A DNA stretch of 26,221 nt from a virus (IMGVR_UViG_2617270943_000001:1-26221), one strand, 5' to 3'. Positions 7,004-18,333 are shown, counted from the first letter of the stretch. Notes: generated by a model not told the origin, from the letters alone. Numbers and translations are program-made.

Positions 7004-7933
7004 ATGGCAAACACTGCTGAGATATTCAATTTTCCAGTGCCGGATGCGGCACAAAAGGAGCCGCGCGTGGCAGATCTCGATGATGGTTATACGCGCATTG
7101 CAAATGAGTTGCTGGAAGCTGTGATGCTGGCCGGATTAACACAGCACCAGCTTCTGGTCTTCCTGGCTGTCATGCGCAAAACATATGGCTTTAATAAAAA
7201 ACTGGATTGGGTGAGCAACGAGCAACTGTCCGGATTGACCGGGATATTACCGCACAAGTGTTCTGCTGCAAAAAGTGTTCTGGTAAAGCGTGGGATTTTG
7301 ATTCAGAGCGGGCGGAATATCGGTATTAATAATGTGGTCAGTGAATGGTCAACATTACCCGAATCAGGTAAGAAAAATAAAGTTTACCTGAAAGAGGTAA
7401 ATTTACCTGAATCAGGTAAGAAAAGTTTACCCAAATCAGGTAAAGGCGTTTACCCGAATCAGGTAAACACAAAAGACAAACTAACAAAAGACAATATAAA
7501 ACCTTTTTCGTCCGAGAATTCTGGCGAATCCTCTGACCAACCAGAAAACGATCTTCCTGTGGTGAAACCAGATGCTGCAATTCAGAGCGGCAGCAAGTGG
7601 GGGACAGCAGAAGACCTGACCGCCGCAGAGTGGATGTTTGACATGGTGAAGACCATCGCACCATCAGCCAGAAAACCGAATTTTGCAGGGTGGGCTAACG
7701 ATATCCGCCTGATGCGTGAACGTGACGGACGTAACCACCGCGACATGTGCGTGCTTTTCCGCTGGGCATGCCAGGACAACTTCTGGTCCGGTAACGTGCT
7801 AAGTCCGGCCAAACTCCGCGACAAGTGGACCCAACTCGAAATCAACCGTAACAAGCAACAGGCAGGCATGATAGCCAGCAAACCAAAACTCGACCTGACA
7901 AACACTGACTGGATTTACGGGGTGGATTTATGA
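7004..7933 (+). CDS. O: Replication initiator O (start at internal ATG 7004 with GGGAGGA Shine-Dalgarno)
   Basis: C-terminal about 100 aa (AEWMFDMVKTIAPSARKPNFAGWANDIRLMRERDG...TNTDWIYGVDL) is near-identical to lambda O; N-terminal domain is O-like; contains ori iterons internally. Confidence 0.9.
   Translation: MANTAEIFNFPVPDAAQKEPRVADLDDGYTRIANELLEAVMLAGLTQHQLLVFLAVMRKTYGFNKKLDWVSNEQLSGLTGILPHKCSAAKSVLVKRGILIQSGRNIGINNVVSEWSTLPESGKKNKVYLKEVNLPESGKKSLPKSGKGVYPNQVNTKDKLTKDNIKPFSSENSGESSDQPENDLPVVKPDAAIQSGSKWGTAEDLTAAEWMFDMVKTIAPSARKPNFAGWANDIRLMRERDGRNHRDMCVLFRWACQDNFWSGNVLSPAKLRDKWTQLEINRNKQQAGMIASKPKLDLTNTDWIYGVDL
7356..7468 (+). repeat. Origin iterons: five tandem copies of about 18 bp (TTTACCCGAATCAGGTAA-like), followed by an A-rich tract
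   Basis: Direct repeats at about 7356, 7383 (degenerate), 7402, 7426 and 7448 inside O, followed by ACACAAAAGACAAACTAACAAAAGACAATATAAAAC, mirroring the lambda ori layout. Confidence 0.75.
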
Positions 7934-15292: not shown

Positions 15293-15377
15293 AGTCAGAG
15301 ATAACAATCAACTAATACTGTTTCGTTGATTTTTGCTTGTAATTGGCGTTCTGGTCTGATTTTTGTGGAGTAAGTTG

Positions 15378-15761
15378 ATGCGTGATATTCAGATGGTTCT
15401 TGAGCGTTGGGGAGCGTGGGCGGCTAATAATCATGAAGATGTGACCTGGTCGTCCATTGCCGCCGGTTTTAAGGGATTAATTACTTCAAAAGTAAAATCT
15501 CGCCCGCAATGTTGTGACGATGACGCGATGATCATTTGCGGGTGCATGGCCCGTCTGAAAAAGAACAACAGCGATTTGCACGATTTATTAGTAGATTATT
15601 ATGTAGTCGGTATGACATTCATGTCACTGGCAGGTAAGCATTGCTGCTCTGATGGTTATATCGGGAAAAGGTTACAGAAGGCTGAGGGCATAATTGAAGG
15701 GATGTTAATGGCATTAGATATCCGGTTAGAGATGGATATCGTTGTTAATAACTCTAATTAA
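15378..15761 (+). CDS. quuD: Late-gene antiterminator Q (phage 82/DLP12 QuuD type), 127 aa
   Basis: Translation [24 protein letters not shown]... with Cys-rich zinc-binding region ([16 protein letters not shown]); positioned after rusA and before the lysis genes. Confidence 0.8.
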
Positions 15762-15785
15762 TACGCCAATTATTTACTAAAAGTT

Positions 15786-15813
15786 ATTAAAAATGGGGCG
15801 TTGAAACGCCCCC
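15786..15813 (-). terminator. Rho-independent terminator (minus strand) downstream of the porin gene
   Basis: GGGGCG-TTGAAA-CGCCCC hairpin followed on the minus strand by a U-run (plus-strand AAAAA at 15789..15793). Confidence 0.55.
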
Positions 15814-15965
15814 AAAAATAAAGGGTAATATATAACAGAAGGTTTGTATAGTTAGAAGCAAGGTTGTGCTTCTAAAGGAAGTGGCTTGAGGGAGCCACTT
15901 ATATGTTGGGGAGGCAAAGCCTCCCACAACATATCTTTTAGTAATCAAATTAGAACTGGTAAACC
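15814..15965 (-). ncRNA. Candidate small RNA between the porin 3' end and the minus-strand terminator (IpeX-like position)
   Basis: Three perfect 8-bp hairpins (15853..15874, 15879..15900, 15901..15934) plus the terminator hairpin in under 180 nt, co-directional with the porin gene. The DLP12 sRNA IpeX is reported at the nmpC 3' end; sequence identity not verified. Confidence 0.25.
15901..15940 (+). terminator. Rho-independent terminator on plus strand (candidate tR' of the late operon)
   Basis: Extended hairpin ATATGTTG-GGGAGGC-AAA-GCCTCCC-ACAACATAT followed by CTTTT, about 140 nt downstream of Q. Confidence 0.5.
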
Positions 15966-17032
15966 ATACCTACAGCAACGATATCATCGGTAGCAACGCC
16001 AGATGCTTTCGTGAAATCGCTCTTATCAATCAGGTTGATTTTGTAGTCAACAAAAGTGGACATATTTTTGTTGAAGTAATAGGTTGCACCTACATCAACA
16101 TATTCAACCAGGTCCTGATCACCCCAAACACCCAAGTCTTTTCCTTTAGAATGCAGGTAAGCAACGGATGGACGCAGGCCGAAGTCGAACTGATATTGTG
16201 CAACAGCTTCGAAGTTTTGTGCTTTGTTGGCAATATGGTTATTACCAAAAACAGTCATGTTCTGGGTTTCAGAATAGGTGGTGGCCAGATAGATGTTGTT
16301 CGCATCATATTTCAGACCAGCTGCCCATACTTCAGCATTTTGACCAGAAGCATTCAGACCGTTGTTACCGTAGATAACCTGATTATTAGTGCGATCAGAT
16401 TTAGCATAGGTTGCACCCACGCCGAATCCTTCATACTCATAAGTAGTTGAGAAACCGAAACCATCGCCATTAGCTTCAGTTACTTCATTTCGGTCATTTT
16501 TGCCCTGATACTGAGCTGCAAAGTTCAGGCCATCAACCAGACCAAAGAAGTCGTTGTTACGATAAGTTGCAACACCTGTGGTGCGACCAGTCATGAATAC
16601 ATCTGTTTGGGTCCAGGTATCGCCACCGAATTCTGGCAGAACGTCAGTCCACGCACCGATGTCGTATGCTACACCGTAGTTACGGCCGTAATCGATTGAG
16701 CCGTAGTCACCGAATTTCAGGCCTGCAAATGCAAGACGGGTTTTGTCTTTGGAGGAACCTTGAGATTCAGCGCGGTTGCCTTTGAATTCATATTCCCACT
16801 GACCGAAACCAGTCAGTTGATCGTTGATTTGGGTTTCACCTTTGAAGCCAAGACGGGCATAAGTAGTATCACCATCATCTGCATCATTAGAGGAGAAGTA
16901 GTGCTTAGCATTAACTTTCCCGTACAGATCCAGCTTGTTACTGTCTTTATTATAAATTTCAGCTGCCTGAGCAGACATCGCCATCAGTACTGATGCAGCT
17001 ACAGCAGAAATTGCCACTGTTAATTTTTTCAT
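15950..17032 (-). CDS. nmpC: General porin of the OmpC/OmpF/PhoE family (NmpC/Lc-type phage-encoded porin), 360 aa
   Basis: Signal peptide [29 protein letters not shown], porin motifs and C-terminal VGMVYQF. Encoded antisense to the late operon between Q and the lysis genes, as in DLP12 and PA-2. Confidence 0.9.
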
Positions 17033-17620
17033 CGTGAGCCCTTTTTTTTGAACTATTATTAAAAAATGATGTCACTGCGCGATAAATATTCATCTAATCA
17101 ATGTGATTATTTCAAGATGTAAGTTTTAGTTTCTCATTTAATTTGTGAAGTAGATCTCTATTTTTATCTGAACTTTTTCTATCGAAACCTATTTATGGCT
17201 CTTATTTGAACAAAAATAAACCTATTAGCTAATTTATATTAATGGCTGTTATTTATGGGGGTTCTATAATTCGGCAGTTTAATTTAAATCAACTAAAAAT
17301 AACGTCTGAAATTATTTATTGGTTATTTGTTGAGGTTTTCTTATGTATTTGTGGTGGAGTTTTGAACACTCGGTAGCATTCTCATAAATATCATTCAGCG
17401 GTTTACGTACGTAAAAAATTGGTTATGCTGTTAAGAGTGGTTACTTCGTCACACAGCTTAAACCCGCCGTCGAGCTGGTTTTTCCATTTTTTGAGTCTCG
17501 ATATTAGCTGATAACTCAATACCTGAGTTATTCACTGACTCCGAGTCTGTTACGTTTCTGCTTTTTTGCGATACGTTGTATTCCCTCAATTTACACCCGC
17601 TTTGTCTGCGAGGTGGGGTT

Positions 17621-17836
17621 ATGAAATCCATGGATAAGTTAACAACGGGTGTCGCCTATGGCACCTCAGCAGGTAGTGCCGGTTACTGGTTTTTACAGCT
17701 GCTCGATAAAGTCACGCCCTCACAGTGGGCAGCAATAGGTGTGCTGGGTAGCCTGGTATTTGGCCTGCTGACGTACCTGACAAACCTTTATTTCAAGATT
17801 AAAGAAGATAAGCGCAAGGCTGCGAGAGGTGAATAA
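17621..17836 (+). CDS. essD: Class II holin (phage 21 S-type pinholin) with dual-start motif MKSM, 71 aa
   Basis: Translation [71 protein letters not shown] matches S21; two TM segments; Met1/Met4 dual start. Confidence 0.85.
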
Positions 17837-18333
17837 TGCCTCCATCATTACGAAAAGCCGTTGCTGCTGCTATTGGTGGCGGAGCAATTGCTATAGCATC
17901 AGTGTTAATCACTGGCCCAAGTGGTAACGATGGTCTGGAAGGTGTCAGCTACATACCATACAAAGATATTGTTGGTGTATGGACTGTATGTCACGGGCAT
18001 ACAGGAAAAGACATCATGCTCGGTAAAACGTATACCAAAGCAGAATGCAAAGCCCTCCTGAATAAAGACCTTGCCACGGTCGCCAGACAAATTAACCCGT
18101 ACATAAAAGTTGATATACCGGAAACAACGCGCGGCGCTCTTTACTTGTTCGTTTACAACGTGGGCGCTGGCAATTTCAGAACATCGACGCTTCTTCGCAA
18201 AATAAACCAGGGCGATATCAAAGGCGCATGTGATCAGCTACGTCGCTGGACATATGCTGGCGGTAAGCAATGGAAAGGTCTCATGACTCGTCGTGAGATT
18301 GAGCGTGAAATCTGTTTGTGGGGTCAGCAATGA
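17836..18333 (+). CDS. rrrD: SAR (signal-anchor-release) endolysin, lysozyme family, 165 aa
   Basis: Gly/Ala-rich N-terminal SAR segment ([20 protein letters not shown]) followed by a lysozyme domain; TAATG overlap with the holin stop. Confidence 0.85.

Follow-up and report, generated by a model that had tools for sequence, protein, structure and literature searches.

The window analysed here, a 26,221-nucleotide stretch of viral DNA (IMGVR_UViG_2617270943_000001), carries an intact porin gene of the nmpC/lc/ompD type on the minus strand (15950..17032), an uninterrupted open reading frame of 360 amino acids, between the gene for the antiterminator Q and the lysis genes, all of which lie on the plus strand. 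The Q protein (15378..15761, quuD type, 127 aa) belongs to the Q21 family, matching Pfam model PF06530 with 179 bits across positions 1-118 of the 118-position profile. A classification as phage 82 type was considered and rejected, PF06530 being the Pfam family of Q21. This Q is 100% identical to QuuD of K-12 and 78% identical over 126 aa to the Q of Stx phages, from which it diverges only in the C-terminal tail, while its relationship to the solved Q21 structure is distant (E=7.6e-7). On the far side of the porin gene lie a pinholin/antiholin gene of the S21 type (essD, 17621..17836, Pfam PF04971), whose dual starts at 17621 and 17630 agree with the annotation in the records of 434B and phage 21, and a SAR endolysin gene of the rrrD type (17836..18333), recognized by Pfam PF00959 and by the annotation of relatives. 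NCBIfam contained no model matching Q or the S21-type holin.

With the NCBIfam model of the OmpC subfamily, for which 484 bits is the cut-off, the porin reaches 515 bits; Pfam Porin_1 (PF00267) matches residues 29-360 with 507 bits. The best relatives of the porin in the PDB are OmpK37 and OmpC, with E about 1e-135. Its translation begins with an OmpC-like signal peptide (MKK start), contains the PEFGG motif of loop 3, and ends in Phe (...MVYQF). A full-length profile match above the curated threshold, combined with signal peptide, PEFGG motif, and C-terminal aromatic residue, marks it as a general diffusion porin. It is 91% identical in amino acid sequence to the K-12 NmpC fragment over 347 aa, and NmpC is reported to form trimeric outer-membrane pores (Hindahl 1984, cited in PMC8144880). 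Chromosomal ompD orthologues from Citrobacter, Salmonella, and Enterobacter show 72-79% nucleotide identity, limited to 15950..16966, the region encoding the mature protein. By this comparison the signal sequence, control region, and 3' UTR of the porin gene are phage-specific, and since the homology to ompD is confined to the mature coding region, no porin promoter can be transferred from ompD.

The 2.6 kb stretch from Q through the porin to the holin is found at 100% identity in many E. coli chromosomes; 2393 of 5426 complete E. coli genomes cover at least 80% of its length, as do 36 phage records. One of the chromosomes with 100% identity carries there a lambdoid prophage with int/xis, exo/bet/gam, a repressor, O/P, and a nin region, continuing through rusA, Q, the porin, and the lysis genes to lambda-like head and tail genes. 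The Q-porin-holin stretch is collinear with quuD-nmpC-essD-rrrD of the K-12 prophage DLP12 (qsr') and with the DLP12-derived segment of phage 434B. With DLP12 it shares the order rusA-ylcG-quuD, opposite-strand porin, and essD-rrrD-Rz, as well as an identical late promoter pR' and palindrome, both described below, and an ipeX 3' region of about 95% identity. It differs from DLP12 of K-12 in that nmpC of K-12 is broken by IS5 after codon 346, whereas the porin gene of the window is intact, and in that the window has a G>T substitution in the terminator of the lysis-operon leader. Its antisense porin gene between Q and holin, and the close match of porin and flanks to those of K-12 NmpC, identify the locus as the nmpC/lc porin module already described for DLP12/qsr'-type prophages. 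The porin is presumably related to lc of phage PA-2 in the way treated by Blasband et al. 1986 and Highton et al. 1985.

Morons of lambdoid phages (bor, lom, HK97 gp15 type), in the definition of Hendrix and colleagues, are extra units between genes that are adjacent in relatives. The porin gene is absent from Stx phages, in which Q and pR' are contiguous. It has a terminator of its own (15812..15795), and its promoter side offers weak matches and two CRP-like motifs. The unit resembles morons also in its flanks of lower GC content, its expression in the prophage, and its function at the cell surface, but where they lie within an operon, it occupies the gap between the antiterminator gene and the promoter which that antiterminator targets. 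The earlier note on this DNA had recognized a full-length porin moron on the opposite strand between Q and the holin, and reading frame, family scores, and neighbours all agree with that description.

Beyond the porin stop codon, the porin transcript continues into a structured 3' UTR (15783..15949, minus strand) that corresponds to the region of the small RNA IpeX. It folds into four hairpins with an energy of -59 kcal/mol (z = -8.6), and the terminator scan identified the last of these as an intrinsic terminator, with a stem at 15812..15795 followed by ATTTTT. The 188 bp that separate Q from the porin stop are about 95% identical to the ipeX region of K-12, with 196 of 207 aligned columns invariant. 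Rfam, which holds no IpeX model, returned nothing in the window or in 15700..17700, either at gathering thresholds or at E<=1. The assignment is therefore based on the identity with the K-12 region and on a review (PMC12197685), in which IpeX is described as a 167-nt RNA that is part of the porin transcript and lowers OmpC.

On its other side, the porin gene is preceded by a conserved proximal upstream region (17033..17190, minus strand) that comprises the 5' UTR and a presumed promoter, and then by a less conserved AT-rich spacer (17191..17400, 28.6% GC) that reaches to pR'. In the 35 unique porin-bearing variants, the roughly 160 bp beside the start codon are nearly invariant. A motif scan placed CRP-like sequences at 17102..17117 (7/10) and 17144..17159 (8/10); the two fit the response of NmpC to carbon limitation, and suggest that the porin is controlled by cAMP-CRP. 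A consensus promoter scan of 17033..17400 yielded no site and a relaxed scan yielded weak candidates only. With no convincing -35/-10 pair for the porin in these upstream scans, we name no porin promoter. The earlier note had attributed 540 bp of AT-rich upstream sequence to the porin. The AT-richness stands, at 32% GC for 17033..17575 and 28% for 17033..17400 against 47.5% for the whole window, but the porin-specific extent does not, being only about 17033..17400; the sequence 17401..17620 is late promoter and lysis-operon leader, not porin-specific upstream DNA. As for expression, an intact K-12 allele of NmpC in strain NCM3722 makes up about 2% of the proteome and is induced by carbon limitation, and levels of NmpC and OmpC are reciprocal (PMC8144880). 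The K-12 allele, at least, is thus far from silent, silence in all conditions having been named by the earlier note as the finding that would speak against its account. The proposal that a phage-borne porin alters the surface and receptor make-up of the cell likewise matches the literature on NmpC and IpeX (PMC12197685, PMC8144880).

The late promoter pR' (essDp) was located at 17402..17429 on the plus strand by homology to the annotated pR' of OP797663 and KR781488. It consists of a -35 hexamer TTTACG (17402..17407), a 16-nt spacer, and a -10 hexamer TATGCT (17424..17429), with a predicted start at A17436. With the intergenic region as query, a sensitive search found matches in hundreds of Stx phages, over 17401..17483 only, and there the window is 76% identical to the annotated pR' and first rho-independent terminator that adjoin Q in those phages. 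The alignment preserves the order of -35 TTTACG, palindrome, A-run, -10 (TATGCT in the window, TATCAT in Stx phages), the block TAAGAGTGGTTAC, which is invariant between the two, and a GC-rich hairpin with T-run. The two blastn homology blocks, 15376..15710 and 17401..17483, lie 1690 bp apart here and 88 bp apart in Stx phages. For prophage Sp5 of strain Sakai, the pR' start mapped by dRNA-seq and the tR' 3' end mapped by Term-seq are 258 nt apart (PMC7547250). That distance fits A846 to T1103 in the Sp5 sequence, where T1103 falls in the T-run of the annotated terminator, and A846, 7 nt after the -10 hexamer, aligns to A17436; the start given for the window is thus transferred by homology from a relative at 76% identity. 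The adjoining spacer varies among the 35 unique porin-bearing variants, but 17395..17480 hardly changes. Work cited as refs 27 and 28 in PMC7918800 reportedly gives the DLP12 lysis operon a promoter fragment of its own (-121..+650), directly upstream of essD and responsive to a Q-like protein; in a paper on minor sigma factors, essD appears in a SELEX table only, with no start site.

The conserved block beside the promoter occurs a single time in the window, and the promoter scan found no promoter-like site between Q and the porin. The Q gene stops at 15761 and the -35 hexamer of pR' begins at 17402, so pR' is not immediately adjacent to Q but is separated from it by 1640 bp of cargo. As the only pR'-like promoter in the window lies beyond the porin as seen from Q, the late transcript should begin downstream of the porin. 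We conclude that the porin cassette (~1.69 kb) is probably placed between Q and pR', so that the Q-dependent late transcript does not include it. The earlier claim that Q-antiterminated transcription has to traverse about 1.7 kb of antisense porin sequence is unsupported in view of a pR' at 17402..17429, the Stx homologue of which has a start mapped by dRNA-seq.

The first transcribed nucleotides include a conserved block, TAAGAGTGGTTACTTCGTCAC (17432..17452, plus strand), that we presume, by analogy with pR'21, to be a sigma-dependent pause region. A -10-like repeat TGGTTA occurs at 17438..17443, 18 nt after a TGGTTA that overlaps the promoter -10, and folding predicts a small nascent-RNA hairpin at 17437..17452. 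The -10-like hexamer of the block is TACTTC here (2/6) versus TACATT in Stx phages (4/6). The block TAAGAGTGGTTACTTCGTCAC is common to 125 loci spanning 8 Q classes, but these were selected with the block as search pattern. Further along the leader, at +28..+57 (17463..17492, plus strand), lies a tR'-like terminator hairpin, CCCGC-CGTCGA-GCTGG followed by T-runs, recognized by homology to the rho-independent terminator of Stx phages. Relatives and K-12 have both the hairpin and the T-run, but in the window a G>T substitution at 17476 breaks the stem, and the hairpin is missing from the minimum-energy fold. Leaders with the GCGGG allele fold at -14.1 kcal/mol with the hairpin, versus -8.4 kcal/mol without it for the window allele, GCTGG; the two alleles were found at 25 and 17 loci, respectively. 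With its leader terminator broken by this change, the window may have a relaxed dependence of the lysis genes on Q.

The 14-bp perfect palindrome TTTACGTACGTAAA (17402..17415), for which the sequence and position in the earlier note were exact, falls at -34..-21 of pR' when +1 is placed at 17436, and so takes in the -35 hexamer together with half of the spacer, the half next to that hexamer. A first-order Markov model predicts 1.7 perfect palindromes of 14 bp or longer for the window, which has three, and the chance of finding one in the 588-bp intergenic stretch is about 0.06. The significance of the palindrome rests on conservation, not on chance statistics. So as not to bias the sample toward the palindrome, the downstream block served as the search pattern for IMG/VR, and 126 sequences were analysed: 120 IMG/VR loci, the window, and five related loci. 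In 89% of 47 unique promoters, a palindrome with 4 bp or more in each arm has its centre at -23.5 or -24 relative to the block, versus at most 5% for any other centre. Symmetry is kept while the sequence varies, with changes on both arms that define eight classes, among them TTTACG-TA-CGTAAA, TTTACG-AT-CGTAAA, GCGT-ACGC, GCGG-T-CCGC, TGTTA-TAACA, TGGAA-TTCCA, and TTCGT-T-ACGAA. A homologous palindrome sits at the same promoter position in phages without any porin. A variable spacing between palindrome and porin was also considered and dropped, the porin start being nearly constant at -398..-400 from the anchor.

For each promoter, the nearest upstream Q homologue was taken for comparison of the Q proteins. 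Identity among these is 0.69-0.99 within a palindrome class (0.84-0.99 where a class has more than two sequences) versus 0.40-0.82 between classes, and the nearest neighbour of a Q belongs to the same palindrome class in 50 of 54 cases. The grouping holds although members of one class vary in their downstream genes and in the cargo that separates Q from pR'. Q differs between classes in its helix-turn-helix (in one class, SEKAIRIEMQIA), a segment that aligns with H5 and H6, the helices by which Q21 contacts DNA. From this covariation we infer that the palindrome is a candidate Q-binding element (QBE) for Q proteins of the QuuD type, although the covariation could partly reflect the linkage of neighbouring DNA.

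Two known systems offer a direct comparison. Stx phages (933W, Sp5, H-19B type) have the same Q subtype and homologous -35 hexamer, palindrome, -10 hexamer, initial-transcribed block, and first hairpin. Their palindrome has AT at its centre where the window has TA, their Q and pR' overlap with no cargo between, where the window has the porin cassette, and their pR' is followed by tRNAs and stx, tR' lying at +258, whereas in the window the holin gene starts at +186. Phage 21 shares with the window the Pfam family of Q (PF06530), the S21 pinholin, and the SAR endolysin. Every promoter element is annotated in its record, a -35, a QBE in the spacer, a -10, a start, a pause element, and a terminator by +50, and the window appears to be laid out alike. 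The QBE of Q21, the only relative with a solved structure, is, however, a direct repeat (10.1101/651190) of two 8-bp subsites (ATTGAGCA/AATGAGCA) at about -27..-12, while the window has an inverted repeat at -34..-21. Q21 reads its QBE by a helix-turn[loop]-helix, and the Q of the window, 35 aa shorter, appears to be without the long loop.

Three other explanations of the palindrome and its surroundings deserve consideration. In textbook lambdoid phages pR' abuts Q, as it would if the late promoter of the window lay beside Q, polymerase crossed 1.7 kb of antisense porin, and the palindrome were the site of a global regulator controlling the porin, a role the earlier note had proposed for it. 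The palindrome is indeed in the intergenic region upstream of the porin, 370 bp from the ATG at a nearly constant distance, and read leftward it makes a weak promoter-like match (TTTACG, 17 nt, GATATT). Yet scans of the gap between Q and the porin for promoter-like sites and for the pR' block found neither, Stx phages do not conserve the leftward -10, and a global regulator of the host would not need eight site sequences that track Q. Furthermore, the palindrome together with its flanks is homologous to pR' of Stx phages that lack a porin and sits there at the same promoter position, which speaks against a porin regulator site; we regard this explanation as very improbable.

A binding site for some regulator other than Q, such as another phage protein, would also suit an inverted repeat, a form typical of dimeric repressors, and the palindrome might similarly be a contact site for RpoE at essDp, where the effect of RpoE reportedly depends on the -35 region. 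No gene other than Q, however, goes consistently with every palindrome class, the residues of Q that are specific to a class fall in the helix-turn-helix, and sites that differ by class cannot be accounted for by a sigma factor of the host. The DLP12 lysis cassette is reported to be under the control of RpoE (cited in PMC7918800), and even so we consider an operator or contact site of this kind quite unlikely. Slightly less improbable, though still unlikely, is that the palindrome is simply the -35 hexamer of pR' with accidental symmetry, read by region 4 of sigma-70 alone. TTTACG matches TTGACA at 4/6 positions at the correct distance from the -10, and perfect 14-bp palindromes are not rare in a window of this size, as the counts above indicate. 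Accident, however, would hardly produce one fixed centre in 89% of the unique promoters or changes on both arms between classes. Several classes, moreover, have their best -35/-10 register displaced by about 2 nt, whereas the distance from the palindrome to the transcribed block does not change.

The reading we favour, and consider likely, is that a DLP12-like nmpC/lc porin cassette lies between Q and pR', that the late operon starts at pR', and that the palindrome is a putative QBE; the promoter is based on homology and published mapping in relatives, and the role of the QBE on covariation. The cassette (~15711..17400) would comprise the C-terminal end of Q, where the Q proteins diverge, the structured 3' UTR of IpeX type including the terminator, the porin coding sequence, and the AT-rich control region, and would be cargo inserted between the Q gene and the pR' on which Q acts. 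The porin would be an autonomous leftward unit, expressed in the lysogen to judge from the literature on the K-12 allele. Rightward from pR', the late operon would run through a short leader with the terminator hairpin into holin, endolysin, spanin, and structural genes. Two copies of Q may load at the palindrome onto RNA polymerase paused in the initial-transcribed block, and the Q-modified polymerase would never need to cross the porin. Only rightward transcripts running beyond the end of Q would be antisense to the porin, and their entry into the cassette might be restricted by the first IpeX hairpin in its complementary form, with CTTTTAG after it.

A broader proposal, to which we give an even chance, is that Q proteins of the QuuD/Q933W branch load at a palindrome overlapping the -35, as head-to-head protomers and in at least eight matched classes of Q and site, and that the interval between Q and pR' is a recurrent site for cargo on the opposite strand. 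Of 10 proteins encoded by such cargo at other loci, PADLOC named only 2 and Pfam only 3. If the proposal is true, cargo such as the porin and candidate defence genes would be kept apart both from the late transcript and from early transcription, which is repressed in the lysogen.

What the analysis adds to a known module is a corrected map of the cassette and the placement of the palindrome in the late promoter. The class-covarying palindrome in these late promoters and the recurrent use of the Q-pR' interval for cargo are modestly new. The module is present in about 44% of complete E. coli genomes, and it is established that an intact porin can rank among the most abundant outer-membrane proteins, with consequences for permeability, for OmpC via IpeX, and for phage receptors. 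With cargo positioned between the antiterminator gene and its target promoter, porin expression and the lysis switch would be transcriptionally separate. If the palindrome is the Q-binding element, its classes would supply a sequence rule for predicting which Q activates which late operons, including those with stx, in polylysogens.

The interval between the antiterminator gene Q and the late promoter pR' was surveyed in lambdoid phage loci from IMG/VR (L006-L125; for example L024, L052, L048, L045, L011, L077, L091, L025, L009, and L037), all of which have the late-promoter block TAAGAGTGGTTAC. In these loci the interval takes two forms, being either about 10-40 bp long or 0.6-2.9 kb long and occupied by cargo. 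The cargo is low in GC (31-45%) and, in nearly all cases, is oriented in the direction opposite to Q. It includes single genes for the porin, an alpha/beta hydrolase, an NA37-like protein, a KAP-NTPase-like protein (PADLOC PDC-S20, 590 bits) and a PDC-M68A/HNH protein, as well as two-gene cassettes that include membrane proteins; most of the cargo lacks a family match. From these sequence comparisons, the Q-pR' interval looks like a hot spot for the insertion of cargo or defence genes.

The porin-bearing interval of the window has further features. On the plus strand at 15901..15934, the complement of the first hairpin of the IpeX region, the structured 3' UTR of the porin transcript, reads ATATGTTGGGGAGGC...GCCTCCCACAACATAT and is followed by CTTTTAG, where K-12 has CTTTTTCG. 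This complement could be a rightward terminator downstream of Q; a terminator scan returned no match there on the plus strand, because the stem contains a bulge. If functional, the candidate terminator would protect the porin from early transcription. The AT-rich spacer contains a 44-codon plus-strand ORF (17242..17376), which certain phage records, ev099 among them, list as a hypothetical protein. Conservation of this region is low across variants, and the ORF is therefore probably not coding. Besides the 14-bp palindrome overlapping the -35 element of pR', the window has a second perfect 14-bp palindrome, CATCAGTACTGATG, within the porin signal-peptide coding region (16982..16995), and a third, AGGTAAATTTACCT, at 7395..7408.

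Positions +2..+17 of the predicted late transcript (17437..17452) form a small hairpin, GUGG(C)...(G)CCAC, 5' of the terminator hairpin. It is kept at homologous positions in nearly all 125 loci, a conservation that is partly a selection effect because the pattern used to retrieve the loci includes part of the hairpin. At the other end of the leader, a final hairpin, CCCGCUUUGUCUGCGAGGUGGG (17596..17617), pairs the holin Shine-Dalgarno region just upstream of the two holin start codons (17621 and 17630), and resembles the known start-choice structures of S genes.

Between these two hairpins, the leader terminator stem (17463..17478) differs among DLP12-type loci at base 17476. K-12 and 25 of 42 such loci have GCGGG in the stem; the window has GCTGG, as do the other 17. 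With GCTGG the predicted terminator hairpin is absent (-8.4 kcal/mol, versus -14.1 kcal/mol for GCGGG). Judging from the predicted fold, the GCTGG allele may allow a part of transcription to proceed into the lysis genes independently of Q.
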